A stretch of DNA of 25,636 bases, taken from contig DAIEFO010000002.1 in NCBI GenBank assembly GCA_027325475.1, positions 1-25,636 of the forward strand. The letters are read 5' to 3'. Source of the DNA: Desulfobacteraceae bacterium. GTDB lineage: Bacteria; Desulfobacterota; Desulfobacteria; Desulfobacterales; Desulfatirhabdiaceae. Each line of letters starts with the position of its first letter. The stretch's first letter is position 1. Below, one piece after another: positions 6,553 through 25,531 of the stretch. A model generated the notes under the pieces. It ran no database searches. It was not told where the DNA came from and saw nothing but the letters and a program-made list of their open reading frames with translations. Made by a program: the position numbers and the translations under genes.

Positions 6553-6568
6553 TGGCATTAATATTGCT
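6553..6568 (+). promoter_or_regulatory. Sigma54 -24/-12 promoter of the aldehyde oxidoreductase operon
   Basis: TGGCATTAATATTGCT: GG-N10-GC with flanking consensus, about 95 bp upstream of the ATG at 6663. Confidence 0.8.
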
Positions 6569-6662
6569 TTCTTGGTCTGTCAAATCTACCTTTTATATGA
6601 GCAGTGTCAGCTGGATCGACATGACGTGTTCGGCATATTTCCCTATCAAACAAGGAGTGAAA

Positions 6663-9326
6663 ATGAAACGGATAGCGTTAACCATCAACGGCGCAAAACA
6701 TGAATTTGTAGTCGGCCCGGAACGGGTGCTGCTGGATTTGCTGCGTGATGACCTCGGACTGACAGGCGCCAAACAGTCCTGCGACCGAAAAGGTCAGTGC
6801 GGCGCTTGCATGGTGATTGTGAACGGCAAAACGGTGCTTTCCTGCCTGACAAAGGTCTATACCCTGGAAGAGGCGGAGGTGATTACTGTGGAAGGGCTGG
6901 GTACTCCGGAAAATCCTCACCTCATTCAGCAAGCATTCGTTCTGGCGGGCGCCATTCAGTGCGGATACTGCACTCCCGGCATGATCATGGCGGCCAAGAC
7001 GCTGCTGGACGCCTGTCCGGATCCTTCTGTCGAAGACATCAAAAAAGGATTGTCACGGAACCTGTGCCGATGCACCGGTTATAAAAAAATAATCGAAGCC
7101 GTCCAGTTGGCTGGCAGGTTCATCCGCGGCGAAATCACTCCGGATGCCGTATGTCCGACTTCCGACGACAAGTCCATGGGCGTTTGTCATCCCCGGCCAT
7201 CGGCCTTGGCCAAAGCTTGCGGTACGGCGCATTTCACCGCCGATATCCGACTGAAAAACGCTCTGGAGCTGGCGGTTCTCAGGAGTCATCTTCCCCATGC
7301 CCGCATTGTTTCCATCGACGCCACTGAAGCGCTTGCCATGCCCGGGGTTGCCGGCGTTGTGACCGCGGCTGACGTCAAAGGTTCCAATATCCTGAAATAT
7401 ATCGTGGCGGACCGGCCGGTGCTGTGCAAAGACAAGGTCCGCTACATCGGGGATCCGATTTTGATAGTGGGGGCTGAAACAAAAGCGCAGGCGGAGGCGG
7501 CGATTTCGGTTGTCCGGGTTGAACTGGAACCTTTGCCGGTCATGAGCTGTCCGGAAGATTCCCTTGGACCCGACGCTGTCAGTGTTCATGACGAGCTTCC
7601 CAATCTCTGCTTTCAGCAGCCCCAGATCAAGGGAGATGCCGAAACAGCCCTTAAAAATTCCGACGCTGTCATCGAAGCACAATTCAAAACGCAGATCAAT
7701 CACCAGGCTCCCCTGGAGCCTGAAGCAGCAGTAGCTTACTGGGAAGATCCTGGGGAAGGCGAAGATCCAACGCTGGTGATCGTCAGCCGCAGTATCAACA
7801 TCCATCTGCACCTTGCAATGCTTCAGGCCGCCCTCGGCTGGGAAAATATGCGTTACCGGGAGGCCTATTCCGGGGGGCAGTTCGGTATCCGGATCGATGT
7901 GATTTCGGAAGGAATTGCGGGCGCCGCCGCCATCCATTTCAAACGGGCTGTGCGCTACATTCCGAGTATCGCCGAAAGTATGCTGATGAGTTCCAAGCGT
8001 CATTCCTTCAAGATGCACGTCAGGATGGGCGCGGACAGCCACGGAAAGCTGACGGCTTACTGTAACGATATCCTGATTGACAAAGGGGCCTATTATTCCA
8101 TTGGTCATGTGGTGCTGCACAGGTCTCTGCTCATGCTCTCAGGTTCTTACCATATTCCCAATATCCAGGCGATGGGAAGGCTTGTTTACACCAACAACCC
8201 CTGGGGCAGTGCAGCCAGGGGTGCCGGTCCTCCTCAGACCAATTTTGCCCTCGAATGCGCTATGGATATGCTGGCGGATAAGATCGGCATGGATCCGTTT
8301 GAATTTCGTCTGCTGAATTCGCTTCAACCTGGTCAGAGTAAATCCACGGGGCGAGTGGTCGATATGTGGTGTTTCCCTGAACTCATGGAAGCCATGCGAC
8401 CCCATTACGAGAGAGCGGTCAGAGAAGCCAAAGCGATGTCCTCCGGCCGAATCCGGCGAGGGGTTGGCATAGGCGCCGGGGCTTTCGGCATAGGCGGGCC
8501 GGGCGATGTTTCGGTGGCTGCGGTCGAACTGGATGCGGACGGCGGCGTCAGTGTCTATGCCGCTGCCGCCGACCCGGGCGAAGGCAATGATTCCATGCTG
8601 AGCCAGTTAACGGCCGCCTTTATGAATATCCCTCTGCGTAAGGTGCGGCTCCACACCCGGGATACGAATAACACCGCAGCCAGCGGCCCGGCTGCCGGCA
8701 GTCGCATCACATATATGATCGGCGGGGCGCTGATCAACGCACTGGAACAATTGAAAGCCGCCATGCAGGAAACCGGAGCCAGAACTTCCGTTGAGCTGGA
8801 AACTGCCGGTAAATCTAAACGTTACCTGGGACGGAAGAAAAATGAAGACGCCGGCCCCCTGGATCCGCAGACAGGGCAGGGGCCGTCCTTTGAATCCCAG
8901 GTGCATGCCGTACAGATGGTCGAGCTGGAAGTGGACACCGAAACCGGCCAGGTTGTTATTCGCAAAATGACAACCGCCGTGGATGCCGGGCGGGTCATCA
9001 ATCCGCAGAACCTGACCGGCCAGCTTGAAGGCGGTATGGATATGGGCGTCGGATTTGCGCTCCGGGAAGAATATGTGGCCGGAAAGACCAGAGACTGGGT
9101 CAGCTTTAAATTCCCGACGATCCGGACAAGTTTTGAGATGGAAACCCTGATCCGTGAAACGCCAAGACCTAAAGGCCCTCTGGGCGCCACCGGCATCGGT
9201 GAGATGTGTATGGTCCCCACAGCTCCGGCCGTTATCAACGCCATCAGGAACGCCGCTGGTATCTGGATATGCGATCAGCCGGCCACGCGGGAAAAAATCA
9301 AGGCCGCCCTGAATCCAGAGAAATGA
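6663..9326 (+). CDS. mop: Molybdopterin-dependent aldehyde oxidoreductase, Mop/xanthine-oxidase family (2x[2Fe-2S] + Mo domain, no FAD domain)
   Basis: Start moved from 6552 to ATG 6663 (AAGGAG RBS; the upstream ORF part overlaps the promoter). CDRKGQCGAC...C and QCGYCTPG...CRCTGY Fe-S motifs; GGQFG, RGAG.PQ, GEG, SR and GIGE (catalytic Glu) Mo-domain motifs; about 887 aa, like Desulfovibrio Mop. Confidence 0.9.
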   Translation: MKRIALTINGAKHEFVVGPERVLLDLLRDDLGLTGAKQSCDRKGQCGACMVIVNGKTVLSCLTKVYTLEEAEVITVEGLGTPENPHLIQQAFVLAGAIQCGYCTPGMIMAAKTLLDACPDPSVEDIKKGLSRNLCRCTGYKKIIEAVQLAGRFIRGEITPDAVCPTSDDKSMGVCHPRPSALAKACGTAHFTADIRLKNALELAVLRSHLPHARIVSIDATEALAMPGVAGVVTAADVKGSNILKYIVADRPVLCKDKVRYIGDPILIVGAETKAQAEAAISVVRVELEPLPVMSCPEDSLGPDAVSVHDELPNLCFQQPQIKGDAETALKNSDAVIEAQFKTQINHQAPLEPEAAVAYWEDPGEGEDPTLVIVSRSINIHLHLAMLQAALGWENMRYREAYSGGQFGIRIDVISEGIAGAAAIHFKRAVRYIPSIAESMLMSSKRHSFKMHVRMGADSHGKLTAYCNDILIDKGAYYSIGHVVLHRSLLMLSGSYHIPNIQAMGRLVYTNNPWGSAARGAGPPQTNFALECAMDMLADKIGMDPFEFRLLNSLQPGQSKSTGRVVDMWCFPELMEAMRPHYERAVREAKAMSSGRIRRGVGIGAGAFGIGGPGDVSVAAVELDADGGVSVYAAAADPGEGNDSMLSQLTAAFMNIPLRKVRLHTRDTNNTAASGPAAGSRITYMIGGALINALEQLKAAMQETGARTSVELETAGKSKRYLGRKKNEDAGPLDPQTGQGPSFESQVHAVQMVELEVDTETGQVVIRKMTTAVDAGRVINPQNLTGQLEGGMDMGVGFALREEYVAGKTRDWVSFKFPTIRTSFEMETLIRETPRPKGPLGATGIGEMCMVPTAPAVINAIRNAAGIWICDQPATREKIKAALNPEK

Positions 9327-9329
9327 ACC

Positions 9330-9689
9330 ATGGATGTGCACCCAACCGGCAATTCGCCCCAGAACCCCGGCCCATGGGTGCGCATCATCGACGGGCGGAA
9401 AATCCTGTTTGACCGGGATGGATATCTGAATGATTTCGATGACTGGTCGGAATCCGTTTTTGAAATTCTGGCCAACGAACTGGGGCTGATTCAAATAACG
9501 GCCCCACACCGGCAGGTCATTCGGTTTCTACGGGAATTTTACGCCTATCACGGACGAGCCCCGCTGAACCGTCAGCTCCGGGAGGGAACCGGCCTGACGG
9601 TGATGGAGATCGAAAAACTGTTTCCGGGCGGGCTGAAAGAAGGCGCCCGCCGGCTTGCCGGTCTTCCCAACCCCAAAACCTGCAACTGA
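9330..9689 (+). CDS. tusE: TusE/DsrC-family sulfur relay protein (terminal Cys only)
   Basis: 119 aa. DRDGYL.DFDDWSE, HRQVIRFLREFY, LFPGG..GA.RLAGLPNPKTC. The position 11 residues before the terminal Cys (the second Cys of true DsrC) is Arg. Confidence 0.85.
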   Translation: MDVHPTGNSPQNPGPWVRIIDGRKILFDRDGYLNDFDDWSESVFEILANELGLIQITAPHRQVIRFLREFYAYHGRAPLNRQLREGTGLTVMEIEKLFPGGLKEGARRLAGLPNPKTCN

Positions 9690-9705
9690 ACAGAGGGGCA
9701 ATCTC

Positions 9706-10866
9706 ATGGAACCTTCTCCACTCATTTATATGGACAACGCCGCCACTTCCTACCCCAAGCCCGCCGATTGTCTGAATCGCGCACTTCTCCGATATCTGAA
9801 GCTCGGGGCGTCTCCCGGTCGGGGGGGATACGATCTGGCTCAGGAAGCCGAAGAGGCTGTATCTGAAATTCGAAACCGCTTGCGGCACTTCTTCGGCGCT
9901 GCTCCGGACTGGCCGCTTTGCTTCGCTGCGAACGCCACCGATGCGCTCAACACCTTGATTCAGGGGATGACCGAACCCGGCGATCATGTGGTCAGCACCC
10001 GCCTGGAGCACAACTCCGTGTTGAGGCCACTGAACCACCTGCGTGAAAATGGCCGGATCACATTCGATCTTGCCCGGTTCGATACCGATGGATTCGTGGA
10101 TCCAAGTGAAATTAGAGCGCTTATCCAATCCAAAACCCGCCTGGTAATTCTCAACCACGCGTCCAATGTCCTGGGTACGGTTCAGCCGGTTGCCGCCATT
10201 GGTCGAATCTGCCGTGATGCGGGTATTTCTCTGGTGATAGATGTTTCACAGAGTGCCGGGGTCATTCCTGTCGCTATGAAGGACTGGGGGGTTTCCGCCC
10301 TGGCTTTCACGGGTCACAAATCTTTGATGGGGCCCTCCGGCATCGGTGGTCTTGTCATCCGTCCAGACATTGCAATCCGTCCAATTCGCTTCGGCGGTAC
10401 GGGTATCGATTCTGCCAATCCCTTTCATACAAAAGAGTTTCCATACCGGCTTGAAGCCGGCACACTGAATCTTCTGGGAATCCTGGGGCTGGGTGAGTCT
10501 CTGTCTTTTCTGGAAGAACAGGAAGCCGGTGGATTCCGCGCCCTGGAAATGGCGCTGACCCGGCAGCTCATAGACGGATTTTCCGAAATTGACGGCGTCA
10601 CCCTGTATGCCGCCAGAAGCCTTGAAAATCATATTCCGCTGTTAAGCTGCAACGTGAATGGAATTGCAGCATCGGATGCCGCAGCCGTTCTGGACGGCGA
10701 CTTCAATATTGCCGTGCGCGCCGGCCTGCACTGTGCTCCTCTGGTGCACGAAAGTCTCGGCACAGCCTCCGGGGGCGCTATCCGTTTCAGCCTCGGTGTA
10801 TTCAATCAACTGTCGGACATCGAAGCCGCTGTCCATGCCATGTCGATCATCGCCGGAAGCGCTTGA
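9706..10866 (+). CDS. Cysteine desulfurase-family PLP enzyme (class V aminotransferase, SufS-like/EF2568-type)
   Basis: Start at ATG 9706 (GAGGGG RBS). IYMDNAATSYPKP, EHNSV, HASNVLG, PLP-Lys TGHK and catalytic RAGLHCAP. Confidence 0.88.
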   Translation: MEPSPLIYMDNAATSYPKPADCLNRALLRYLKLGASPGRGGYDLAQEAEEAVSEIRNRLRHFFGAAPDWPLCFAANATDALNTLIQGMTEPGDHVVSTRLEHNSVLRPLNHLRENGRITFDLARFDTDGFVDPSEIRALIQSKTRLVILNHASNVLGTVQPVAAIGRICRDAGISLVIDVSQSAGVIPVAMKDWGVSALAFTGHKSLMGPSGIGGLVIRPDIAIRPIRFGGTGIDSANPFHTKEFPYRLEAGTLNLLGILGLGESLSFLEEQEAGGFRALEMALTRQLIDGFSEIDGVTLYAARSLENHIPLLSCNVNGIAASDAAAVLDGDFNIAVRAGLHCAPLVHESLGTASGGAIRFSLGVFNQLSDIEAAVHAMSIIAGSA

Positions 10867-10911: not shown

Positions 10912-10927
10912 TGGTATGCAACTTGCT
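10912..10927 (+). promoter_or_regulatory. Sigma54 -24/-12 promoter of the large glutamate dehydrogenase gene
   Basis: TGGTATGCAACTTGCT: GG-N10-GC, about 60 bp upstream of the ATG at 10986. Confidence 0.75.
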
Positions 10928-14141: not shown

Positions 14142-14158
14142 TTCGGTGATTCCAATAC

Positions 14159-14210: not shown

Positions 14211-14236
14211 CAGTCTCCAGAGGGTTCGCTTTTCAG

Positions 14237-15728: not shown

Positions 15729-15757
15729 GTTTTTACTTCATCTTCTTACGCAGGTTA

Positions 15758-15773
15758 CGCAAGGAATATACCA
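15758..15773 (-). promoter_or_regulatory. Sigma54 -24/-12 promoter of gabT
   Basis: The minus strand reads TGGTATATTCCTTGCG: GG-N10-GC, pointing to gabT. Confidence 0.7.
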
Positions 15774-16064
15774 GTTTGTCATTTGCCGGGCTCAGGTTGC
15801 TGAATATAAGACAATCCTCCGATCAGCCTGTTTTCTGTTCGTTTGGCCCGGATTCCTTCTCGAAATTGCGACTTCAGCCATCTCCGACCATGAAAAATGA
15901 ACTCTTTATCATAACAGGTAACGCTCATTGCCGTTTGGGGGTCTGGAAGAATCCAATGCAGGGGCTGGCTCAAGCCAAGTTGAATGTCCGCAAGCTGCAT
16001 TATGCGCCTCTGGATATTATATGAAGCCTTCAAGATTTCGTACAGAGAGCATAAGAATGTAAAG

Positions 16065-16092
16065 TTGCATATATTATGCAGATGTGCATAAT
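16065..16092 (+). promoter_or_regulatory. Possible sigma70 promoter of the regulator gene, overlapping the upstream palindrome
   Basis: TTGCAT (16065-16070) - 16 nt - CATAAT (16087-16092). Confidence 0.35.
16075..16090. promoter_or_regulatory. Putative enhancer (UAS) palindrome 1
   Basis: TATGCA-GATG-TGCATA; same arms and spacing as 18141-18156. Confidence 0.6.
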
Positions 16093-16289: not shown

Positions 16290-16344
16290 AATTTTAAGAT
16301 GCTGGAAAATCAGGACGTTGTTTTCAAAAATGGAGAAATCACCA

Positions 16345-18138
16345 ATGCAGAACGAATCTCTGCCCATATCATTCTTATCACCCGCCGAGGCGTGGATATA
16401 TATGTCTGTCCTGTCAAACATTCGGGAAGCGGTTGTTGCGGTTCTTCCGACCGGGGTGATCGGTTACGTCAACCCTGCGGCGTCCGCCGCTTTCGGGCTG
16501 ACGCTTGGTATCCAATTTGAATCAAAGTTTCCTGAACTGAAACAACCGCTGATGCGTGTCCTCAAGAGTCGCCAGGATTGCCTGAATGTTAATATCACCA
16601 TTGATCGGTGCGAATATCAGGTCAATCTCTATGCGCTCCGTGAACAGGACCAACCGATCTGGGCGGTGTGCATTTTGGAAAATCATACCGAAATGAACCG
16701 GACAATTCAACAAATGCTGTCATTTCAAGAACTTTCTCGTGAGCTTGACACAATCATCGACGCCGCTTATGACGGACTGTGGATTTGCGACGCCAATGCC
16801 ACAGTTCTTCGGATCAACGCCGCTTCCGAGCGTCTGAACAATCTTCGGGCATCCGAAGTGGTCGGCCGCAATATGTCGGATTTAATTGCCGAGGGGTTTA
16901 TCAACCGGTCTGCGACGCTGGAAGTGATCAAAACCGGTAAAACAGCCACACTGCTTCAAAACACGGGCACAGGCCGCAAACTCATGATTACGGGCAATCC
17001 CATTTTCGATGAAACCGGTCAATTGGTGCGCGTTGTCGTGAATGAACGGGACATCACGGAAATTGACGCCCTGCACGAAGCGTTACAGCATCAGGAGGCC
17101 ATCAAGAATCAGTATCGGAATCACATGCTTGAAATGCAGCTTGCGGAAATGGAGTCCCGCCGGATTATCGCCCGGAGTCCCTGTATGACCAAACTTCTTC
17201 AGCAGGCTATCAAGGTCAGCAAGGTGGATTCAACGGCCATCATCCTGGGAGAGTCTGGAGCCGGCAAGGAATTGGTCGCCGATCTCATCCATAAGCACTC
17301 GAAAAGGGCAACCCAGCCCATGATCAAGATCAACTGCGGCGCCATCCCTGAATCGCTGGTCGAGTCCGAACTCTTTGGTTATGAAAAAGGCGCCTTCACC
17401 GGTGCTCAAAAACAGGGAAAACCTGGATATCTGGAACTGGCCCAGGACGGCATGCTGTTCCTGGACGAGGTTGCGGAGCTTCCTCTGGCTTCGCAGGTCA
17501 AGCTTCTTCGGTTTCTGGAAGACGGCATGGTCTGCCGTGTCGGTGGTGTGAAGAGCTACAAGCTCAACGTCCGCATCCTGACTGCCACCAACCGGGACCT
17601 CAAAGAAATGGTGCGAACCGGTGCTTTCCGAAAAGATCTGTTTTATCGGCTGCACGTCATTCCTCTCCATGTACCGCCCTTGAGAGAGCGAACCGAGTGT
17701 ATTCTGCCGCTGCTCCATCACTACCTTCATTATTTCACCGATAAAATCGGTAAAACCGGATTTATTCGCCTTTCCAAACCGGTTACGGACATCCTTCTTT
17801 CGTATCCTTATCCCGGAAATGTCCGTGAGCTGATCAATATCTGTGAACGAGCGGTTGTCATGTGTGACGGCGAGTGGATATCTCTGGACGATCTGCCTCG
17901 GGACGTAACCGATGCCGCCAATTCCAAGGAAATCTTCGATATGGTGAATTTATCCTGTTGCTCCCTCAAGGAACTCATGGAAAACTTCGAACGTTCCGTG
18001 CTGGTCAAAGCCACCGCTCAGTACGCCACCCAGAAAAAGATCGCCGCAGCCCTGGGGGTCAATCAGGCCACCATCGCACGGAAATTGAAACGATACGCCG
18101 TCCCCTTGAACGCATTCAGAGAGTTTGCTGCGCACTGA
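16345..18138 (+). CDS. PAS-domain sigma54-dependent transcriptional activator (bEBP)
   Basis: Start moved to ATG 16345 (GGAGA RBS; the ORF-track extension lies in the repeat). Two PAS-like segments, Walker A GESGAGKE, intact ESELFGYEKGAFTGA, LFLDEV, RKDLFYRL, YPGNVREL, C-terminal HTH. No receiver domain. Confidence 0.92.
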   Translation: MQNESLPISFLSPAEAWIYMSVLSNIREAVVAVLPTGVIGYVNPAASAAFGLTLGIQFESKFPELKQPLMRVLKSRQDCLNVNITIDRCEYQVNLYALREQDQPIWAVCILENHTEMNRTIQQMLSFQELSRELDTIIDAAYDGLWICDANATVLRINAASERLNNLRASEVVGRNMSDLIAEGFINRSATLEVIKTGKTATLLQNTGTGRKLMITGNPIFDETGQLVRVVVNERDITEIDALHEALQHQEAIKNQYRNHMLEMQLAEMESRRIIARSPCMTKLLQQAIKVSKVDSTAIILGESGAGKELVADLIHKHSKRATQPMIKINCGAIPESLVESELFGYEKGAFTGAQKQGKPGYLELAQDGMLFLDEVAELPLASQVKLLRFLEDGMVCRVGGVKSYKLNVRILTATNRDLKEMVRTGAFRKDLFYRLHVIPLHVPPLRERTECILPLLHHYLHYFTDKIGKTGFIRLSKPVTDILLSYPYPGNVRELINICERAVVMCDGEWISLDDLPRDVTDAANSKEIFDMVNLSCCSLKELMENFERSVLVKATAQYATQKKIAAALGVNQATIARKLKRYAVPLNAFREFAAH

Positions 18139-18160
18139 TATATGCAATATTGCATATATC
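18137..18160. promoter_or_regulatory. Putative enhancer (UAS) palindrome 2
   Basis: Perfect 24-bp palindrome GATATATGCAATATTGCATATATC with core TATGCA-N4-TGCATA, overlapping the regulator stop codon. Confidence 0.7.
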
Positions 18161-18363
18161 AGGTCATAATGTTGCAAATTACCAGACTGCGGCGGTAATA
18201 TGCCATTTAGAGATTGGATGGGATCCCGTTGCTGCAAGGAACATTCTGTTCTTATCCCTTAAAAATATATATTTTGTTCATTATTATCGCCTGCCTATAA
18301 ATTACATTTTTGTTATTAATTGTTCGATCGGTCCACCCTTTCATTTTTTTTACAAATCACTTC

Positions 18364-18453: not shown

Positions 18454-18469
18454 TGGCATGTAACTTGCT
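18454..18469 (+). promoter_or_regulatory. Sigma54 -24/-12 promoter of the ABC transporter operon
   Basis: TGGCATGTAACTTGCT, near-perfect consensus, about 65 bp upstream of the ATG at 18536. Confidence 0.85.
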
Positions 18470-18535: not shown

Positions 18536-19771
18536 ATGAAGGGACGAACCAGGTTAATGGCTTTACTGTTGGTTTTGGTGATGTCTGTTCCGGTATGGGC
18601 GGATCAGGCGAGAGACTACTTCAAGGTCGGCGTTATTACCTCACTTTCTGGCAGTCTGGCTACCGGCGGCAATGTCACCAAACGCGGCTACGATTTATGG
18701 GCGAATGCCGTGAACAAGGCAGGCGGCATTGAGATCAAAGGCAAAAAATATCCGGTGAAACTTTATTATGTGGATGATCAGTCCGAACCCGCCCAAGGTG
18801 CTTCCGCCGCCGAGCGGTTGGCCACTCAGGAAAAAGTCGATTTCGTCCTGGGGCCCTATGCATCCGGTCTTACCCTTGCAGCCGCACCTGTCCTAGAAAA
18901 ATATAAAATCCCAATGATTACGGGATCTGCAGAATCTCCGTTAATCTGGAAGGAAAAATTTCATTACACCTTCGGCACCATTCCTCCTGTGAATTATACC
19001 GGTTCAGCGCCTATTGACACTCTGGCCAAGCTTGACCCTAAACCCAAAACAGCTCTGATCCTGGGCTCCAACGATGCATTTTCCAAAGCGACAGCCGAAG
19101 CTTTCCAGGATGCTGCCATCAAAGCCGGCATCAAGATTCTGAAATTTAACATAGTTCCCTCCGGGCAGGATTTGATTCCCTATCTTTCCGCCGCAAAGGC
19201 CATGCAGCCGGATATAATTGCTTTCGGAGGTCATGATGAGGAACTGATCAACTTTGTCAAGGCTCTCAATCAGATCAACTACACGCCCAAGGCTTTGCTG
19301 ATGCACTACGGTGTTACTGAACCGGCTTTCATTGAAGCGCTGGGAAAAAGTGCAAATCAGGTTTTTGGCGCCTCCGTATGGACAGATTCCATTCATACCA
19401 AGGGCGAAGTCCTGTGGCCTGACGCCAAATCGTACGCTGAAGCCGCCATGAAGGCCTACAATGTACCGGCCGATTACACGCAGGCAGGTTCTTCCGCTGC
19501 CGGCATTGCTTTTCAAGAAGCTCTGATCAAAATCAACGCCGTTCCCCCGCTGGACGAAAAAAAGCGGGATGAATTGGTTACCGCTCTTGAAAATCTGAAA
19601 GTTCAGACTTTTTATGGTCAGATCGCCTTCGCCACCTCAGGCCAGTTCTTTCACGCCAATGTGGGCCTGACACCGCTCACCATCCAGATTCAGGACGGCA
19701 AGGTTGTTGTCGTAGGGCCGCCCAATCTGGCAGAGAGCAAGCCGATATATCCTATGAAAGCCAATAAATAG
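18536..19771 (+). CDS. Liv/HAAT-family ABC transporter substrate-binding protein
   Basis: 411 aa. Signal peptide (VWA|DQ), KVGVITSLSG, INxxGG-like NAVNKAGGI, YVDDQSEP, VLGPYASG. AAGGAGG RBS. Confidence 0.9.
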   Translation: MKGRTRLMALLLVLVMSVPVWADQARDYFKVGVITSLSGSLATGGNVTKRGYDLWANAVNKAGGIEIKGKKYPVKLYYVDDQSEPAQGASAAERLATQEKVDFVLGPYASGLTLAAAPVLEKYKIPMITGSAESPLIWKEKFHYTFGTIPPVNYTGSAPIDTLAKLDPKPKTALILGSNDAFSKATAEAFQDAAIKAGIKILKFNIVPSGQDLIPYLSAAKAMQPDIIAFGGHDEELINFVKALNQINYTPKALLMHYGVTEPAFIEALGKSANQVFGASVWTDSIHTKGEVLWPDAKSYAEAAMKAYNVPADYTQAGSSAAGIAFQEALIKINAVPPLDEKKRDELVTALENLKVQTFYGQIAFATSGQFFHANVGLTPLTIQIQDGKVVVVGPPNLAESKPIYPMKANK

Positions 19772-19857
19772 ATATTTCATGCCAACATCTGTCATGAATG
19801 TGTTCATCCCCTGAATAATTCAGGAACGAATCGATCAATCAGGGGAAACTCAAAATC

Positions 19858-20010
19858 GATGCCCTTGGAAAAAGTCGAATTTCAGACGGCTTTGTAAAAT
19901 ATTCACCGGCAGAGCGCACAAATCCATAAGGAGTTAGGCGTACTTTTGAGTGTGCCGCAACGACAAAGGGTGCTGTGCTGAAGCGGCTACGGACTTTTTA
20001 CAAAGTCGTC
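19858..20010 (+). repeat. Leader plus diverged full TIR element
   Basis: 27-bp leader GATGCCCTTGGAAAAAGTCGAATTTCA (19858-19884); core 19885-20010, GACGGCTTTGTAAAA...ACTTTTTACAAAGTCGTC. Confidence 0.85.
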
Positions 20011-20099
20011 AGGATTTTTCTTTTGACGATGAGGGACGCGGGGGACGGTCAACCAGACGATCCCCCCGGAATTTCGCAGGATCAATCGGAGCATACACC

Positions 20100-20984
20100 A
20101 TGGAACTACTACCTCAGGCCCTGATAGACGGCCTGCTGATCGGCGGTATTTACATCACGATCGCGATCGGATTTTCCCTGGCCTACGGCGTCATGCACAT
20201 CATCGATTTCGCCGTCGGCGAATGGATCATGCTGGGGGCTTTTCTCGGATATTACCTCAACCTGTGGTCAGCTCTGGATCCGTTTATCCTCCTGCCGGCG
20301 GTATTTCTGGCTTTCTTTCTCATTGGATATTTGATCCAGCCTCTGGTTTATCGGGTCATCAGCGGAAAAAAAGGCAATCCCGTCCTCATGGGGCTGGTAT
20401 TCACCTTCGGACTGGGTTTGATGTTTCGAGGCTCCGCCCTGACAGGTTTCGGTTTTTATTCTCACTCCATTCCATCAGCGATTTCGCAAAATTCCTTTTT
20501 TCTGGAAATGGGTGGTATGTTCATCACCATCCCATATGTACGTCTGGCCGGTCTCCTGTACGCCCTGGCCGTCACGATGGTGCTGCACTTCGTCCTGAAA
20601 AAAACCAATTTCGGCCGGGCAGTCAGAGCCCTGTCACAGCACCGTGAAGCCTCCGGTCTGATGGGGATCAACGCCAAACGGATCAGTTCTTACGTTTATG
20701 GTATTTATGTGGGAATCAGCGCCATGACCGGCGTCATCATTGGAAGCATTTTCACCATCAATGCCCAGATGGGCGGAGAATATTCCATTCTGGCGTTTTT
20801 TATTGTAGTGCTGGCGGGCATGGGATATCTGCCCGGCGTCCCATGGGCCTCGTTTCTTCTTGGGCTGGTGCAGTCATTTTTTCTTATCTATCTGAATCCC
20901 AGTTACACTCTGATGGCTGTTTTCGGCATTCTGTTCACCATTTTGTTAATTTCCCCCAAAGGGCTGTTTGGAAGAGGCGTATGA
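20100..20984 (+). CDS. livH: Liv-type ABC transporter permease
   Basis: Start moved to ATG 20100 (MELLPQALIDGLLIGGIY). IGFSLAYGVMHIIDFA.G, KTNFGRAVRALSQ...A.LMGIN, VVLAGMG. Confidence 0.88.
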   Translation: MELLPQALIDGLLIGGIYITIAIGFSLAYGVMHIIDFAVGEWIMLGAFLGYYLNLWSALDPFILLPAVFLAFFLIGYLIQPLVYRVISGKKGNPVLMGLVFTFGLGLMFRGSALTGFGFYSHSIPSAISQNSFFLEMGGMFITIPYVRLAGLLYALAVTMVLHFVLKKTNFGRAVRALSQHREASGLMGINAKRISSYVYGIYVGISAMTGVIIGSIFTINAQMGGEYSILAFFIVVLAGMGYLPGVPWASFLLGLVQSFFLIYLNPSYTLMAVFGILFTILLISPKGLFGRGV

Positions 20985-21961
20985 GCCGAAAGTATCTTTT
21001 ATTGATTCTGTTCTGCGGTATTTTACTGGCGGTGCCTTCCATAGTCCGCGACACGTTCTATCTGCGGATCGTCACGGAAGCCTTCATGTGGATCGGTCTG
21101 GCCATTTCCTGGGATGTTCTGGCAGGATACACCGGCTATCTGAATTTCGGACATGGCATATTTTTCGGAGTCGGGGCATATACCACCTCCATCCTCATGA
21201 ATCTATGCGGCTGGTCGTTTTTCATGACGCTTCCTGTCTCGGCTCTGGTGGCTGCCGTTGTGGCCGTGATTGCCGGAATTCCGACCCTTCGACTGAAGGG
21301 CGCCTATTTCGCCATTGCTACCTGGGCACTGGCCAGAGCCATCCAGCAGATGGTGCTGGTCGCCAGCTTCACTGGCGGACCCGATGGCATGCGGTTGCCC
21401 CCGTTTCTGCATCCGGGCTTCTTCTATTATACTATGCTGATCGTGGTAGGCGGTGTTTTCGCTCTCAACTGGTTCCTGCTGGAAAAAGCGCCGTTCGGAC
21501 TGAAAGTCAAGGCAATCCGCGAAGACGATCAGAGCGCTATGTCTCTGGGACTAAATCCGACAAAAATCAAGCTCCAGGCATTTCTTCTTTCCGCTGTGCC
21601 CGCCGGAATCCTGGGCGCCATTTATGCCTACTGGATCACGTATATCGATCCTGCATCCGTTCTCGGCGATATGGTGACGGATCAGGCTGTGGTTATGGCG
21701 GTATTCGGGGGACTTGGCACCCTGATAGGCCCGGCCATCGGCGCTGTCATTATCTTTTTATTCAAGACATATTTCTGGGCATATCTGTCCGATTATCAGG
21801 TTCTCTACCTGATAATTCTAGGGGGGGTGATTGCAGCCAGCGTTGTTTTCCTGCCCAATGGTCTGTGGGGAACGATCACAAGTTACCGGCAATCCGACAA
21901 GGCTCTGAAGCACGAACCGGTTTCTTCCCGCTCAGACGATAAAGGAGACCCTCATGTCTGA
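20981..21961 (+). CDS. livM: Liv-type ABC transporter permease
   Basis: ATG 20981 overlaps the livH stop. GYTGYLNFGHGIFFGVGAY, LRLKGAYFAIAT, FTGGPDG, GLKVKAIRED, FGGLGTLIGPAIGA. Confidence 0.88.
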   Translation: MSRKYLLLILFCGILLAVPSIVRDTFYLRIVTEAFMWIGLAISWDVLAGYTGYLNFGHGIFFGVGAYTTSILMNLCGWSFFMTLPVSALVAAVVAVIAGIPTLRLKGAYFAIATWALARAIQQMVLVASFTGGPDGMRLPPFLHPGFFYYTMLIVVGGVFALNWFLLEKAPFGLKVKAIREDDQSAMSLGLNPTKIKLQAFLLSAVPAGILGAIYAYWITYIDPASVLGDMVTDQAVVMAVFGGLGTLIGPAIGAVIIFLFKTYFWAYLSDYQVLYLIILGGVIAASVVFLPNGLWGTITSYRQSDKALKHEPVSSRSDDKGDPHV

Positions 21962-22679
21962 ACCTTTTCTTCAAGTCAATGCCGTCACCAAAACATTTGG
22001 GGGATTGCACGCGGTTTTTCAAGTATCTTTTCAGATGAACGCCGGTGAAATCATTGGGCTTATCGGCCCGAACGGCGCTGGAAAAACCACGCTCTTTAAT
22101 GTGATCAGCGGTTTTTATGCGCCTAATAGTGGCAAAATCCTTTTTAAAAATCTGGATATCAGCGGCAAACCGCCTTATAAACTCGCCAGACTCGGTATCG
22201 GCCGCACCTTTCAGGTCGTAAAACCTTTCGCGGGTCTTACGGTTCTGGAAAACGTCGTTATCGCCTCATTTGTCAAATATCCTCAACGCCGCAAGGCGGA
22301 AAAACATGCCTGGCAGATTCTGGAAATGACGGGTCTGGTGGATCGGGCCAATGTCCAGGCATCCAGTCTGACCCTGGCCGGTCGAAAGCGTCTTGAGGTC
22401 AGCAAGGCTCTGGCCTTGGAGCCGACGCTGCTGCTTCTTGACGAAGTGGTGGCAGGCTTGAATCCGACAGAAGCGGATCGCACCATCGAGCTTATTCTGT
22501 CTCTACGCAGCCAGGGTATCACCATTCTGATTGTCGAGCACATTATGCGGGTTATTATGAACATCAGCGACCGCGTCGTGGTACTCAACTTCGGGCAGAA
22601 AATCGCGGAAGGCAGTCCCCGGGATGTGGCCAAAAATCCCGAGGTCATTCAAGCATATCTGGGAGAGGCGCCACAATGA
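21954..22679 (+). CDS. livG: Liv-type ABC transporter ATP-binding protein
   Basis: FGGL.AV, GPNGAGKTT, GIGRTFQ, LLLLDEVVAGLN, IVEH, VI.AYLG. Confidence 0.92.
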   Translation: MSEPFLQVNAVTKTFGGLHAVFQVSFQMNAGEIIGLIGPNGAGKTTLFNVISGFYAPNSGKILFKNLDISGKPPYKLARLGIGRTFQVVKPFAGLTVLENVVIASFVKYPQRRKAEKHAWQILEMTGLVDRANVQASSLTLAGRKRLEVSKALALEPTLLLLDEVVAGLNPTEADRTIELILSLRSQGITILIVEHIMRVIMNISDRVVVLNFGQKIAEGSPRDVAKNPEVIQAYLGEAPQ

Positions 22680-23386
22680 ACATTCTGAACATCAAGGACA
22701 TTTCCGTGTGTTATGGCGATATCCAGGTTCTATGGGATATCTCCCTTTCTGTCACCTCAGGGCAGATCGTAGCGCTTCTTGGAACAAACGGCGCTGGAAA
22801 AACCACAACCCTGAAAACGATATGCGGTTTGCTGCCGAGCGTTTCCGGCCAGATAGATTTTGAAGGAAAGGCCATCAGCGGCTTTCCTGTTCACGATATC
22901 ACCAATCTTGGAATCACTCTGGTTCCCGAAGGTCGTCAGCTTTTCCCCAAAATGAATGTCGAAGAAAATCTGCTGATCGGCTCTTATCTGCGCCGGACTC
23001 ATGAACACCGGGCCAGAAATCTGAAAACGGTCTATGAACTTTTTCCCCGGCTTGCCGAACGAAAAAATCAGACTGCGGAAACCCTGTCCGGCGGCGAACA
23101 GCAGATGGTGGCTATCGGTCGGGCGTTGATGCAGAACCCGAAGCTCATCATGTTCGATGAACCCAGCCTGGGACTTTCCCCAATACTGGTTCAGGAAGTG
23201 TTTCGAGTCATCCAGGAATTGCACGGTCAGGGACTGACAATTTTTCTGGTCGAGCAGAATGTTCACCAGACACTTAAAATTGCCGATTACTGTTATGTTC
23301 TGGAAAACGGGCGCGTGGTGAAGGAAGGTGCGGGAAAGGATATGGAACAGGATACCGCTATCCGGGAGGCCTATCTGGGTTTCTGA
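22676..23386 (+). CDS. livF: Liv-type ABC transporter ATP-binding protein
   Basis: GTNGAGKTT, VPEGRQLF, LSGGEQQMVAIGRALM, DEPSLGL, LVEQNV, REAYLG. Confidence 0.92.
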   Translation: MNILNIKDISVCYGDIQVLWDISLSVTSGQIVALLGTNGAGKTTTLKTICGLLPSVSGQIDFEGKAISGFPVHDITNLGITLVPEGRQLFPKMNVEENLLIGSYLRRTHEHRARNLKTVYELFPRLAERKNQTAETLSGGEQQMVAIGRALMQNPKLIMFDEPSLGLSPILVQEVFRVIQELHGQGLTIFLVEQNVHQTLKIADYCYVLENGRVVKEGAGKDMEQDTAIREAYLGF

Positions 23387-23491: not shown

Positions 23492-23514
23492 AATCGACTT
23501 TTTACGAGGGCATC
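23492..23514 (-). repeat. Solo repeat leader/terminus
   Basis: Reverse complement GATGCCCTCGTAAAAAGTCGATT is 22/23 identical to 16138-16160. Confidence 0.75.
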
Positions 23515-23576
23515 AATTTTACTTCAGTGAAGATGTATCGCCTGAAATCTTTCAATAAAATTGTTAAAATTCGGTA

Positions 23577-23608: not shown

Positions 23609-24586
23609 ATGAGCATCAATCGAGATAAAGTGATGACGCTGAAAGATGCGATCAAAACGTATGTCACAGATGGATGTCACATATCGATCGGCGGATTCAC
23701 GGTCAGCCGCAATCCCATGGCCGCCGTCTTTGAGATCATGCGGCAACGAAAGAGAAATCTTCATTGTTATGCCCATTCAAACGGTACGGGTATTGACGAG
23801 CTTGTCGGCGGCGGATGTATTTCAAAGCTTGAGATCGCCTATGGGGGAAACGGCAAGGCGGCCCCGACTTGTATTCGTTTTAAATCAGCCATTCAAAACA
23901 GAGAGATTCTTTTCGAAGATTATTCGAATTACCAGATGTCTCTTCGCTTTCATGCCGGCGCTATGGGTGTTCCATTTATTGCGACACGATCCGGATTAGG
24001 GACGGATATTTTAAAAAAATGGGGATTTTCTGAACAAATGAGGAGTAAGGATCCGAAGTTGCCTGATAAAAAAATTGAAATCATTGATAATCCTTTCAAC
24101 GGATGGGCAGGCGCTTCGAAGGTGGTGCTGGTTCCGGCAATAAACCCCGACATCACAATCATTCACGTTCAGAAAGCGGATAAGTATGGCACATGTAGGA
24201 TCGAAGGGCTGAACTTCGCCGATGTCGATCAAGTTAAGGCATCGCGAAATGTCATCGTTACCTGCGAAGAGATCGTCGATACAGATACGCTGAGAGAAAA
24301 ACCTGAATACAACCAAATCCCGTTTATTCATGTAAGCGCTGTTGTCCATGTCCAGTACGGCGCATATCCCTCCGCATGCTACAATTATTATGATTATGAC
24401 CCCAAATACTTGAGCCAGACCAGCAAATTCGCCAAAGACGACAGGTTATACGAAGAATACCTGAAAAAATTTGTCTATGGTGTGAAAGACCACCAGGAAC
24501 TACTGAATCTCATAGAAAAAGAGCAATTAAAAAATATTTCAGCGGACAAACGCACTGGATATGCCACCGGTTTGGACAGGCGATAG
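23609..24586 (+). CDS. gctA: Family I CoA-transferase subunit A, glutaconate CoA-transferase-like
   Basis: KVMTLKDAI..YV..G.HISIGGFT..R.P.AAVFEI.RQ, EDYS, HAGAMGVPF, IDNPF, VTCEEIV, YGAYPS.CY..YDYD; collinear with recalled Acidaminococcus GctA. Confidence 0.85.
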   Translation: MSINRDKVMTLKDAIKTYVTDGCHISIGGFTVSRNPMAAVFEIMRQRKRNLHCYAHSNGTGIDELVGGGCISKLEIAYGGNGKAAPTCIRFKSAIQNREILFEDYSNYQMSLRFHAGAMGVPFIATRSGLGTDILKKWGFSEQMRSKDPKLPDKKIEIIDNPFNGWAGASKVVLVPAINPDITIIHVQKADKYGTCRIEGLNFADVDQVKASRNVIVTCEEIVDTDTLREKPEYNQIPFIHVSAVVHVQYGAYPSACYNYYDYDPKYLSQTSKFAKDDRLYEEYLKKFVYGVKDHQELLNLIEKEQLKNISADKRTGYATGLDRR

Positions 24587-24590
24587 GCTG

Positions 24591-24744
24591 GGCGCTCTTG
24601 TAAAAAGTTGATTTGGCGACGGTTTTGTAAAAAATTGCGCAGGCAAGGCACGCAAATTCGCAAGGAACACGGCGTACTTATGGTACGCCGTGGCGTCGGA
24701 ACATGCAGCGCTGGCGCGGCATCCGGACTTTTTACGAAGCCGCC
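24591..24744 (+). repeat. Leader plus diverged full TIR element between gctA and gctB
   Basis: Leader 24591-24617; core 24618-24744, GACGGTTTTGTAAAAAAT...ACTTTTTACGAAGCCGCC, with 10-bp hairpin CACGGCGTAC/GTACGCCGTG. Confidence 0.85.
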
Positions 24745-24769
24745 GGGCTTCGACGGGGAGGTGAAAACG

Positions 24770-25531
24770 ATGGAATACACATTGAAAGAACTGATGACGA
24801 TTATGGCGGCAAGAGAAATTCAGGATGACGATATCGTCTTTTGCGGCACTGGAATTTCCATGGTTGCGGCCATGGCCGCCAAACATATCAATGCTCCGAA
24901 CAGTATCATTTTTTTCGAAACAGGAGCTATCGATTCAAGGCTTGAAGAGGTGCCCATGGCGGTTGCAGATCCGCGAGTGATGTTCGGGGCTGCATCCAAC
25001 AGTGGTTTACTGGAGTCTTTTGCAACCATGCAGAACCAAATCACGGGCGGTCGCGTCATCGGTATATTGGGTGCAGCTCAAGTCGATAAATACGGAAATC
25101 TGAATTCCACCTGTATCGGTGATTATTTTCAGCCTCAGATTCGTTTCTCCGGAAGTGGGGGCGCCTGCGATGTCGCATCATTTGTGCCCAGATGCCTCAT
25201 TTTCATGCAGCACGAAAAGCGAAAATTCCCCATTATGCTGGATTATCTGACCAGTCCAGGCTATTTGGACGGCCCCGGCGCCAGAGAAAACGCAGGACTG
25301 ATGTCTGGTGGCCCAACAGCAGTCATCACCAATCTGGGGGTGATGTATTTTGACCATGACACCAAAGAAATGTATCTGGCATATTATTATCCGGGAGTTT
25401 CCCCTCAAACGATTCTCGACAACATGGAATTTGGGGTAGATATTTCGCGTGCGAAAGAAGCGGAATCACCGACAGAGCATGAGTTGAAAATCCTGCGGGA
25501 AACCGTCGATCCCCACAAATTGATTCTTTAG
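24770..25531 (+). CDS. gctB: Family I CoA-transferase subunit B, glutaconate CoA-transferase-like
   Basis: Start moved to ATG 24770 (GGAGG RBS). Catalytic Glu in IIFFETG; AQVDKYGNLNSTCIGDY..P..RFSGSGGA, MQHEKRKF, DYLTSPG, MYLAYYYP. Confidence 0.87.
   Translation: MEYTLKELMTIMAAREIQDDDIVFCGTGISMVAAMAAKHINAPNSIIFFETGAIDSRLEEVPMAVADPRVMFGAASNSGLLESFATMQNQITGGRVIGILGAAQVDKYGNLNSTCIGDYFQPQIRFSGSGGACDVASFVPRCLIFMQHEKRKFPIMLDYLTSPGYLDGPGARENAGLMSGGPTAVITNLGVMYFDHDTKEMYLAYYYPGVSPQTILDNMEFGVDISRAKEAESPTEHELKILRETVDPHKLIL

Follow-up and report, generated by a model that had tools for sequence, protein, structure and literature searches.

Candidate omega-amino acid oxidation locus of a Desulfobacteraceae bacterium with a Mo hydroxylase in the place of an aldehyde dehydrogenase

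In the gabDT and davDT systems (GabT-GabD of E. coli; DavT-DavD of Pseudomonas, followed by a glutarate CoA-transferase and GcdH), an omega-amino acid is converted to a semialdehyde, a dicarboxylate, and then a CoA ester, and the glutaryl-CoA route has been described (PMC6667623, PMC5974017). For E. coli GabT, GABA and 5-aminovalerate are about equally good substrates, and the E. coli enzymes accept both (PMC6265302). The gab cluster of Bacillus thuringiensis is catabolic and is controlled by GabR, a sigma-54 activator of the PAS-AAA+-HTH type, with GABA or succinic semialdehyde as inducers (PMC4279683). The locus described here shares the aminotransferase family and the proposed reaction order with gabDT and davDT. 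It differs from them in that it has no NAD(P) aldehyde dehydrogenase, but instead the aldehyde oxidoreductase Mop with its own sulfur relay and a built-in glutamate dehydrogenase (GDH). In addition, the glutaryl-CoA dehydrogenase is of the non-decarboxylating Desulfococcus type, and the organism is a strict anaerobe.

Among described enzymes, Mop resembles the Desulfovibrio gigas MOP (PDB 1sij/1vlb). The two proteins align from end to end (1sij, E 7.8e-179), and Mop retains the catalytic Glu as well as the cysteines of both [2Fe-2S] motifs. The Mop of the window stays under the cut-off of the NCBI equivalog NF045668 for pterin aldehyde oxidoreductase (775 bits, cut-off 1100). We know of no physiological substrate for D. 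gigas MOP, whereas the genomic context here proposes one; other members of the family hydroxylate heterocycles.

Gene content and proposed pathway

The window, i.e., the whole stretch of DNA that was analyzed (25,636 nt), is one entire contig of a MAG that is 67.6% complete (assembly 2.4 Mb), and it stops 105 bp past the end of gctB. The Desulfobacteraceae bacterium (G000) is an uncultured relative of sulfate reducers from mine drainage. It was compared with further genomes (G0xx) and with gabT loci from other families (L1xx). Profile and structure-database matches recovered every gene listed in the sequence-only reading, namely mop-tusE-csd, gdh, gabT, one activator gene, a five-gene ABC importer, and gctAB (Table 1). 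The window also contains no PF00171 match, in agreement with the claimed lack of a GabD/DavD-type aldehyde dehydrogenase. The start of mop, which had been placed at 6552, was corrected to 6663. The starts of csd, the activator gene, and gctB were also corrected and are approximate; the long ORFs of the activator (from 16249) and of gctB begin within a ~135-bp repeat.

Table 1. Features of the window
Feature	Position	Strand	Evidence or remark
Sigma-54 -24/-12 promoter, mop operon	6553..6568	+	TGGCAT-N5-TTGCT
mop, Mo-hydroxylase-type aldehyde oxidoreductase, 887 aa	6663..9326	+	two [2Fe-2S] motifs, Moco domains, catalytic Glu
tusE-like sulfur carrier	9330..9689	+	TIGR03342, 72.5 bits (cut-off 53.5); single C-terminal Cys (...KTCN)
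csd, class V cysteine desulfurase	9706..10866	+	TIGR01977, 402 bits (cut-off 377); ORF from 9655
Sigma-54 promoter, gdh	10912..10927	+	TGGTAT-N5-TTGCT
gdh, large GDH, 1051 aa	10986..14141	+	PF00208 and PF05088
gabT/davT-type omega-amino acid:2-oxoglutarate aminotransferase	14237..15541	-	TIGR00700, 545 bits (cut-off 506)
Sigma-54 promoter, gabT	15759..15774	-	TGGTAT-N5-TTGCG
Tandem candidate activator-binding palindromes	16056..16090		TATGCA-N4-TGCATA and degenerate neighbour, ~300 bp upstream of gabT promoter
PAS-AAA+-HTH sigma-54 activator (bEBP)	16330..18138	+	GAFTGA motif, residue 381 (long-ORF numbering)
Perfect 28-bp palindrome, putative ABC-operon enhancer	18135..18162		contains TATGCA-N4-TGCATA
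Sigma-54 promoter, ABC importer operon	18454..18469	+	motif match, kept in relatives
Liv/HAAT-type ABC importer, five genes	18536..23386	+	Pfam matches, PDB relatives
Importer binding protein	18536-19771	+	
Importer permeases	about 20100-20984; about 20981-21961	+	
Importer ATPases	21954-22679; 22676-23386	+	
Short repeat piece, ABC-gctA spacer	23496..23526		also in gabT leader, about 15710-15745
gctA, glutaconate/glutarate CoA-transferase alpha	23609..24586	+	1poi_A, E 9e-68; PF01144
Copy of ~135-bp dispersed repeat between gctA and gctB	24608..24744		>40 copies in assembly
gctB, CoA-transferase beta	24770..25531	+	profile match

We consider it fairly probable that these genes encode an inducible system for the uptake and oxidation of a short omega-amino acid via Mop. 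The Liv-type ABC transporter would bring in the omega-amino acid, and the GabT/DavT-type aminotransferase would transfer its amino group to 2-oxoglutarate, yielding glutarate (or succinate) semialdehyde and glutamate. From the glutamate, the large GDH would probably regenerate 2-oxoglutarate under release of ammonium. Mop would oxidize the semialdehyde to the dicarboxylate and presumably pass the electrons to a low-potential carrier. Its molybdenum cofactor would be matured by TusE and the cysteine desulfurase, the latter being the probable sulfur donor. GctAB would form glutaryl-CoA, which would enter a route of non-decarboxylating glutaryl-CoA dehydrogenase and beta-oxidation genes elsewhere in the genome. 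Apart from the choice of substrate, the core of this pathway, as proposed from the sequence, gained strong comparative support (a tungsten-type aldehyde:ferredoxin oxidoreductase, AOR, in the slot of Mop, fusions, promoter pattern, repeated recruitment of GDH, and a gctAB operon; see below).

Sigma-54 promoters and the PAS-type activator

The motif TGGYAY-N5-TTGCW matched three times in the window (at 6553, 10912, and 18454; expected 0.11), and three or more matches were found in 0 of 100 shuffles. A fourth site, TGGTAT-attcc-TTGCG, is present on the minus strand (15774..15759). The whole assembly contains 43 such sites in 2.4 Mb, or about 0.018 per kb, and thus, four sites in 25.6 kb represent a roughly nine-fold excess. 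All four promoters were kept in genomes of the same genus. The motif scan, the shuffles, and the conservation in the genus bore out the claim of four sigma-54 promoters, and the single PAS-type activator is present as stated. The mop promoter is also present in G005, G008, G015, G007, and G001. The gdh promoter is kept in G015 and G008 and is absent in G005, where gdh directly follows csd, and at stand-alone gdh loci of another genus. The core of the gabT promoter is invariant across four genomes, and similar promoters precede gabT in other families.

The tandem palindrome pair at gabT is shared with G005, G015, and G008, and the palindrome of the ABC operon was kept in G015, G008, G007, G004, G016, and others. 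In the whole 2.4-Mb assembly, the perfect palindrome has two copies, both inside the window, one at gabT and one at the ABC operon. Orthologues of the activator gene are divergent from gabT in several families, and the regulon core (gabT, divergent activator, ABC operon, their sigma-54 promoters, and the identical palindrome) recurs within the genus, elsewhere in the family, and in other families. We hypothesize that the activator would bind the TATGCA-N4-TGCATA palindromes flanking its own gene and, together with sigma-54, would turn on gabT and the importer, and we infer that the gene units are co-induced. The upstream regions of the mop and gdh promoters of five genomes were searched for the palindrome or another shared motif, and none was found. 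The proposal of one activator for all four promoters is therefore backed by palindromes at gabT and the ABC operon, but not at mop or gdh.

As in the B. thuringiensis gab cluster, a PAS-domain sigma-54 activator encoded beside gabT would drive gabT from a -24/-12 promoter (PMC4279683), a likeness that is based on domain layout and regulatory logic. Unlike in B. thuringiensis, which belongs to another phylum, the activator would also drive an ABC importer, and the aldehyde step would not be performed by GabD. Sigma-54 control and a GDH are also classic features of nitrogen metabolism, and most genomes of the genus have no gctAB linkage. The locus could thus serve nitrogen scavenging and not energy metabolism, with aminotransferase and GDH freeing ammonium and Mop only detoxifying the carbon skeleton before its excretion. 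This is very improbable, because the activator is a dedicated PAS protein and not NtrC, the B. thuringiensis cluster under a PAS/sigma-54 activator provides a catabolic precedent (PMC4279683), and a glutaryl-CoA dehydrogenase and beta-oxidation operon lies behind gctAB orthologues and is present in G000.

GDH, GctAB, and the probable substrate

The large GDH had no match among NCBIfam models or PDB structures. It is patchy among the relatives; four genomes have it, among them G005 with co-transcription of gdh and mop. In G001, a small 421-aa ELFV GDH lies in front of gabT. L109, from another family, has a large GDH (64% identical) in a gabT-aor-gctAB locus. Across these loci, GDH has joined at least two times independently, in the large 1051-aa and the small 421-aa form.

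Glutarate is a known substrate of the GctAB of Acidaminococcus fermentans (PDB 1poi), which is a two-subunit family-I CoA-transferase like the enzyme described here. Unlike the A. fermentans enzyme, the latter would probably act catabolically on glutarate, ahead of glutaryl-CoA dehydrogenase, and not in glutamate fermentation. The gctAB orthologues of G005, the nearest relative (gctA 84%, the pair 84–87% identical), head an operon with a Desulfococcus-type glutaryl-CoA dehydrogenase (NF045552, 785 bits, cut-off 470), a crotonase, Hbd, and thiolases, and the same glutaryl-CoA dehydrogenase is encoded on contig C446 of G000 (97.7% identity). The linkage of gctAB to the cluster is tentative: the genes are present on the contig, but gctAB was not found beside the ABC operon in the other genomes of the genus, and the ABC-gctA junction lies within a repeat at which four independent assemblies break. 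The ~135-bp repeat between gctA and gctB has a depth of about 600–1500, compared with about 20–40 on its flanks, and the gctA-gctB gap of G005 comprises only 27 bp.

In other families, CoA-transferase genes were found next to gabT. L113 contains an operon gabT-aor-gctA-gctB under a sigma-54 promoter, L110 and L115 contain gabT-gctAB, and in L102 and L114, gabT-aor adjoins IclR, a family-III CoA-transferase, and glutaryl-CoA dehydrogenase. These neighbours favour 5-aminovalerate, and we infer that it is the most likely substrate, probably with GABA as well.

Class-III aminotransferases are promiscuous, and the importers of gabT loci differ (TRAP in L109, PotD-type ABC in L102, NCS1 permease and C-N hydrolase in L115). 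Furthermore, the binding protein of the window has weak similarity (41–74 bits) to Leu/Ile/Val and amino-acid binding proteins of known structure. The substrate could thus be another amine or amino compound (putrescine, cadaverine, beta-alanine, 6-aminohexanoate, or taurine), and Mop would then act on a different aldehyde. We regard this as improbable, since GabT scored above the curated cut-off for 4-aminobutyrate transaminase, E. coli GabT (1sf2, E 6.5e-125) ranks first among its PDB matches, and no proteins other than GabT and PuuE are among its best structural relatives. In addition, the recurrent glutarate-activating CoA-transferases and glutaryl-CoA dehydrogenases fit a C5 omega-amino acid, and importers of the HAAT family transport amino acids, not diamines.

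Mop and AOR at gabT loci

Outside the genus, an AOR gene (PF01314/PF02730) lies directly downstream of gabT at 9 of 19 loci and within 5.3 kb at 2 more. The survey of the family added seven loci, all of them aor-gabT, and aminotransferase-AOR fusions of about 1058 aa occur in three genomes. The gabT-AOR loci of Desulfobacterales and other anaerobes share gabT (orthologues 64–90% identical), the divergent activator, the ABC operon, the sigma-54 promoters, and the palindrome with the window. However, they encode a tungsten-type AOR that is co-transcribed with gabT, whereas the oxidoreductase of the window is an unrelated Mo/[2Fe-2S] enzyme that is encoded, together with TusE and cysteine desulfurase, by a separate operon convergent to gabT. 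A literature search yielded no publication on the gabT-AOR pairing or on the substitution by Mop.

Within the genus, mop-tusE-csd is convergent to an AOR-less gabT in G000, G005, G007, G008, G013, and G015, and in G001, 17.6 kb of one contig separate it from an AOR-less gabT. Mop has a sigma-54 promoter in every genome with an AOR-less gabT that includes the upstream DNA, and its presence was confined to genomes of this kind. Fifteen mop loci with no link to an AOR-less gabT had no such promoter (G010, which keeps aor-gabT; G014 and G020, both without gabT; G011; and 11 more distant loci). Regarding the suggested co-occurrence of gabT, mop, gdh, and gct, the mop-gabT association is confined to this one genus, and the adjacency of gctAB to the ABC operon was not kept in the other genomes of the genus.

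The mop-tusE-csd module is conserved at 7 of 12 close mop loci, and it is an independent module that many genomes have unaccompanied by gabT. Whether or not the gene has the sigma-54 promoter, the Mops show the same degree of similarity (84–86% identity) and do not separate in the tree; the protein gives no pointer to a new specificity. In addition, a GabD-type succinate-semialdehyde dehydrogenase (TIGR01780, 754 bits, cut-off 646) is encoded outside the locus in G000 (contig C410) and in G005 and could perform the same step as Mop. The reading of Mop "instead of" an NAD dehydrogenase is supported for the window, but not for the genome. Gene gabT, the activator, and the ABC importer could thus form an ordinary GABA/5-aminovalerate module, with the NAD(P)-dependent GabD from elsewhere in the genome oxidizing the semialdehyde. 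The mop-tusE-csd module would then be a chance neighbour under a different sigma-54 activator, and its Mo hydroxylase would serve general aldehyde detoxification or act on an unknown substrate, in line with the missing sites for the local activator at mop and gdh. This explanation is rather unlikely. Neither a sigma-54 site nor the palindrome was found in the vicinity of the C410 gene, and G007, G015, and G016 have no GabD-like match of that strength by the Pfam score pattern, although G007 and G015 still have mop-gabT. Moreover, chance placement does not predict that the mop promoter is confined to genomes in which the AOR was lost from gabT, and the joint transcription of gdh and mop in G005 also argues against it.

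In the favoured reading, with Mop as the semialdehyde-oxidizing enzyme, the ancestral order would have been aor-gabT, activator gene, ABC operon. Some members of the genus would have lost the tungsten-type AOR, and a pre-existing mop-tusE-csd would have acquired a sigma-54 promoter and replaced it. Judged from gene order and promoters, the Mop substitution appears to be a lineage-specific variant of the GabT-AOR arrangement. Mop would here fill the slot that is occupied by a tungsten-type AOR in the relatives and by an NAD-dependent dehydrogenase in textbook bacteria.

Gene content, promoters and activator

With its 25,636 bases, the window comprises the entire contig C222 of a metagenome-assembled genome (MAG) of 2.4 Mb (461 contigs, 67.6% complete). 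The nearest relatives of its genes belong to uncultured Desulfobacteraceae and Desulfobacterales, and its sequence was also present in mine-drainage metagenomes. The genes, promoters and lone activator described by the sequence-only reading were borne out, with amended gene starts. The phosphonate gene cluster appears to have no relation to the finding.

Features of the window, listed by position
Feature	Position	Strand	Basis or remark
Phosphonate C-P lyase operon (phnJ, I, H, G), GNAT acetyltransferase, phosphonate ABC transporter	3-6310	-	divergent from mop
Sigma-54 promoter of mop	6553		TGGYAY-N5-TTGCW
mop	6663-9326	+	1sij alignment
TusE-like carrier, one cysteine (C-terminal)	9330-9689	+	
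Cysteine desulfurase (csd)	~9706-10866	+	
Sigma-54 promoter of gdh	10912		TGGYAY-N5-TTGCW
Glutamate dehydrogenase (GDH), 1051 aa	10986-14141	+	PF00208, PF05088
gabT	14237-15541	-	TIGR00700
Insertion in gabT leader, ~120 nt	15586-15710		
Terminator-like hairpin in insertion	15645-15659		opposite strand
Shorter repeat piece	~15710-15745		gabT leader
Sigma-54 promoter of gabT	15774..15759	-	ending TTGCG
Perfect palindrome and degenerate twin	16056-16090		between gabT and activator gene
~135-bp repeat	16157-16287		
PAS-AAA+-HTH activator with GAFTGA	~16330-18138	+	
Second palindrome, extended to 28 bp	18135-18162		directly past activator stop codon
Sigma-54 promoter of ABC operon	18454		TGGYAY-N5-TTGCW
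Liv-type ABC importer, 5 genes	18536-23386	+	
Shorter repeat piece	23496-23526		ABC-gctA spacer
gctA	23609-24586	+	
~135-bp repeat	24608-24744		between gctA and gctB
gctB	~24770-25531	+	

Sigma-54 promoters were defined as TGGCAC-N5-TTGCW-like sequences that lie upstream of a gene and in which the GG and GC doublets are spaced by exactly 10 nt. All four promoters that had been claimed were found, 59–218 nt 5′ of the start codons. The three matches to TGGYAY-N5-TTGCW compare with 0.11 expected, and no shuffle gave three. The whole assembly contains 43 such sites, so that the four in the window represent an about nine-fold excess. The promoters of mop, gabT and the ABC operon were kept at the same relative positions in genomes of the same genus, while that of gdh was retained in G015 and G008 and absent from the nearest relative, G005. 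The insertion in the gabT leader, which is missing in the three other aligned genomes, increases the distance between promoter and start codon to 218 nt. Scans of the window for sigma-70 promoters and terminators yielded no more hits than shuffled sequences, a terminator scan of the interval between the ABC operon and gctA gave nothing convincing, and an Rfam scan of the window (e.g. for a Moco riboswitch within the conserved leader of mop) gave no match.

As had been proposed, a single PAS-type sigma-54 activator is encoded in the window. It contains PF00158 (2.9e-66), a PAS domain (residues 165–271), HTH_50, and GAFTGA at residue 381, and this combination of an N-terminal sensor, an AAA+ sigma-54 domain with GAFTGA and an HTH marks the predicted protein as a bacterial enhancer-binding protein. 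Of the two palindromes that flank its gene, the first is a perfect TATGCA-N4-TGCATA with its twin 19 bp away. The distance from each palindrome to the outward-facing sigma-54 promoter that it precedes, that of gabT or that of the ABC operon, is about 300 bp. The perfect palindrome was found at no other place in the assembly, and the palindrome occurred at equivalent spots in relatives of the same genus, of the family and of other families. Because it is limited to these two sites and recurs across relatives, gabT and the importer are taken as the predicted regulon of the local activator. In five genomes, the mop and gdh promoters had neither the palindrome nor another shared motif upstream, and a search of the mop promoters of five genomes for the palindrome with up to 4 mismatches or for a common 10-mer found nothing. 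The mop and gdh promoters would still need an activator, be it the local one or another. The suggested co-regulation by one activator is backed by predicted sites at gabT and the ABC operon, but not at mop and gdh.

The ~135-bp intergenic repeat is dispersed in the assembly in more than 40 copies of 75–81% identity. It inflates the activator and gctB ORFs and coincides with assembly breakpoints; at 24652–24763 the depth was 576–1460, compared with about 20–40 on the flanks. The spacer between the ABC operon and gctA, which includes a short piece of the repeat that is also found in the gabT leader, has a length of 222 bp and is unrelated to the upstream region of gctA in G005. Logan contigs from four metagenome runs all stopped at 23491/23496, an exact bridging unitig of 81 nt was found in only one run at about half the flanking depth, and the depth was equal on both sides of the junction in every run. 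Either a genuine, repeat-mediated rearrangement or a chimeric join could account for the junction.

The proposed aldehyde-oxidizing step next to gabT

The aminotransferase scored 545 bits with TIGR00700 (cut-off 506), and its top 14 PDB matches were all GabT or PuuE, which assigns it to the predicted GabT/DavT type. Of 301 genomes sampled from the order, 106 had a gabT orthologue (E below 1e-120). Outside the genus, 19 fetched gabT loci were compared. A gene for a tungsten-type aldehyde:ferredoxin oxidoreductase (AOR, with AFOR_N and AFOR_C) was located directly 3′ of gabT in nine of them and within 5.3 kb in two more. In three genomes, a class-III aminotransferase and a complete AOR were fused in single ORFs of 987–1058 aa (L113:8455-11631, L117:6157-9330 and L105:12066-15029), which were flanked by genes for a TetR regulator and a 2x[4Fe-4S] ferredoxin. 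These single-ORF fusions provide direct evidence that transamination and aldehyde oxidation are coupled, and they represent a natural coupling of transamination to ferredoxin-linked aldehyde oxidation. Beside gabT-aor in genome G234 (L102:704-3239 and 13768-14418), a gene for a B12-binding protein was observed together with genes for two methyltransferases, one of the MttB family and one matching the dimethylamine methyltransferase Dimeth_PyL (472 bits), which hint at methylamine metabolism in a Desulfobacterales genome.

Within the family of the window, seven loci comprise aor-gabT, a divergent activator and the ABC operon (G004, G009, G010, G016, G019, G022 and probably G021). Six genomes of the genus lack the AOR (the window's own genome, G000, and G005, G007, G008, G013 and G015), and in these mop-tusE-csd and gabT converge; four of the six have the large gdh in the interval. 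In G001, gabT is also without an AOR, and mop-tusE-csd lies on the same contig at a distance of 17.6 kb. In the orthologous cluster of G008 (L016, G008:C52), many frameshifts and stops interrupt mop, csd, gdh, the gene of the binding protein and further genes, which looks like assembly error and not decay.

Mop aligned with 1sij over its full length and has two [2Fe-2S] cysteine motifs, the Moco-binding domains and the catalytic glutamate of the G-x-G-E segment. Its score with NF045668, the equivalog model of pterin-dependent aldehyde oxidoreductases, was 775 bits, below the cut-off of 1100, and it is, judged from its sequence, a relative of D. gigas MOP and not the curated equivalog. The three genes mop-tusE-csd (window 6663–10866; other loci L018–L023 and L029) form a conserved module of their own in Desulfobacterota and in a Limnocylindrales (Chloroflexota) MAG. 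Among 12 close loci, which extend from Desulfobacterota to Chloroflexota, 7 had the module without gabT. The single C-terminal cysteine of the TusE-like carrier, together with the desulfurase, suggests a dedicated persulfide relay that would sulfurate the Mo cofactor.

A sigma-54 promoter preceded mop in none of 11 loci of the stand-alone kind. Within the genus, the promoter and a conserved leader were present in G000, G005, G007, G008, G015 and G001, i.e. in the genomes with an AOR-less gabT for which the DNA upstream of mop was available. The promoter was missing from G010, which retains aor-gabT, from G014 and G020, both without gabT, and from G011. This complementarity of promoter and AOR is the strongest argument that Mop was recruited to the omega-amino-acid system as a replacement of the AOR. 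The Mops of both contexts were 84–86% identical to the window Mop, and a Mop tree, inspected for one clade of sigma-54-linked Mops, was a polytomy without resolution. Because the Mops of the two contexts are alike and not separated in the tree, the recruitment looks like a regulatory change rather than an altered enzyme specificity.

The window encodes no NAD(P)-dependent semialdehyde dehydrogenase (PF00171) with the aminotransferase. A GabD-type succinate-semialdehyde dehydrogenase is encoded on other contigs of G000 and G005 (TIGR01780, 754 bits, cut-off 646), so that a complete lack of GabD in G000 is ruled out. Neither a sigma-54 site nor the palindrome was found near this gene, and G007, G015 and G016 had no GabD-like match of that strength. 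In gene content, the window fits the proposal of a Mo enzyme instead of an NAD dehydrogenase, but the proposal has to be qualified for the genome.

Glutamate dehydrogenase, CoA-transferase and substrate

The large GDH gave weak Pfam matches to the ELFV (PF00208, 5e-19) and Bac_GDH (PF05088, 6.4e-11) catalytic domains and no match in NCBIfam and PDB searches. Its distribution is patchy, with 4 of 16 genomes of the genus, all three of a sister genus and one of another family, at 64% identity. At the latter locus (L109) it is accompanied by a TRAP transporter, gabT-aor, an activator, gctBA and a 2-oxoacid:ferredoxin oxidoreductase; in another genus it lies in unrelated surroundings without a sigma-54 promoter. 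In G005, gdh lacks a separate promoter and begins about 50 bp after csd, so that it is transcribed with mop. In G001, an unrelated 421-aa ELFV GDH (L133:11740-13005) is encoded directly upstream of gabT in the same orientation, inserted between the palindromes of the activator and gabT and preceded by a -24/-12-like site and tandem palindromes. Other species of the genus recruited the 1051-aa enzyme instead. GDH would regenerate 2-oxoglutarate for the aminotransferase, and the apparently separate recruitment of different GDHs fits this role.

GctA was similar to the glutaconate CoA-transferase of A. fermentans (E 9e-68), and GctAB consists of two PF01144 subunits that are homologues of 1poi and have a genomic link to glutaryl-CoA metabolism. 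In G005, the gctAB orthologues (84–87% identical) have a separate sigma-54 promoter and lie behind the gene for a second PAS activator. The operon that they head also encodes a crotonase, a glutaryl-CoA dehydrogenase and a further acyl-CoA dehydrogenase, as well as a 3-hydroxybutyryl-CoA dehydrogenase and two thiolases. The glutaryl-CoA dehydrogenase is of the Desulfococcus type (NF045552, 785 bits, cut-off 470), and a 97.7% identical enzyme is encoded with thiolases on contig C446 of G000. Adjacency of gctAB and the ABC operon was not found elsewhere in the genus, where gctAB lies away from the operon, and its conservation in the genus is ruled out. Of the gene association that had been predicted, the mop/gabT part recurs in the genus, but the gctAB part does not.

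In other families, gabT was found in gabT-aor-gctA-gctB under a sigma-54 promoter (L113), in gabT-gctAB (L110 and L115), and in gabT-aor located 3 kb from genes for an IclR regulator, a family-III CoA-transferase and a glutaryl-CoA dehydrogenase (L102 and L114). Because gabT is linked with glutarate activation in these three different ways, the gene neighbourhoods point to 5-aminovalerate as a substrate. Succinate would need no CoA-transferase, and most gabT loci are without one. For the latter reason, and because enzymes of the GabT family accept GABA and 5-aminovalerate to about the same degree (PMC6265302), GABA is fully possible too, and both may be used.

Proposed pathway and its implications

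The window locus shares its chemistry with the gabDT/davDT routes (PMC6265302) and with the route from glutarate to glutaryl-CoA (PMC6667623, PMC5974017), and differs from known routes in the enzyme of the aldehyde step and in the built-in GDH. The canonical gabDT/davDT operon has an NAD(P) dehydrogenase with the aminotransferase, whereas the window locus is without it. The regulatory logic matches the one known from B. thuringiensis, where the PAS/sigma-54 activator GabR controls the gab cluster (PMC4279683). Searches of the open-access literature found no paper tying gabT, GABA or 5-aminovalerate to AOR or Mop, and nothing relevant on these terms together with tungsten or sulfate reducers.

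Taken together, the locus holds a genuine sigma-54 regulon that is conserved among relatives and would serve the catabolism of omega-amino acids. Most likely, Mop with the TusE/csd maturation pair replaced the tungsten AOR at the semialdehyde step in a lineage-specific manner within the genus, and we regard the proposed mechanism as a whole as reasonably probable. We are more doubtful about its most specific form, which we propose only tentatively: that Mop oxidizes glutarate/succinate semialdehyde in an anaerobic pathway for 5-aminovalerate/GABA, with ferredoxin or flavodoxin as its partner, and that it recently displaced the tungsten AOR via a gained sigma-54 promoter, bringing along a dedicated TusE/csd sulfuration relay.

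Fermentation and stress commonly yield GABA and 5-aminovalerate, which arise when glutamate is decarboxylated, proline is reduced, or lysine or cadaverine is broken down. To our knowledge, their use by strictly anaerobic sulfate reducers is poorly described. If the semialdehyde step feeds a low-potential acceptor and not NAD(P), the energy yield of the pathway changes. The natural substrates of the long-studied Mop enzymes are, as far as we know, unclear, and these enzymes would gain a concrete physiological role if the proposal is true. The locus would then also be a natural case in which a molybdenum enzyme took over from a tungsten enzyme within a single regulon, and the metals available in mine drainage may have driven this exchange. 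Close genomes with either the AOR or a newly sigma-54-promoted Mop would offer a clean natural case of non-orthologous replacement by regulatory rewiring, with defined testable parts, i.e. promoter, palindrome, activator, binding protein and enzyme.
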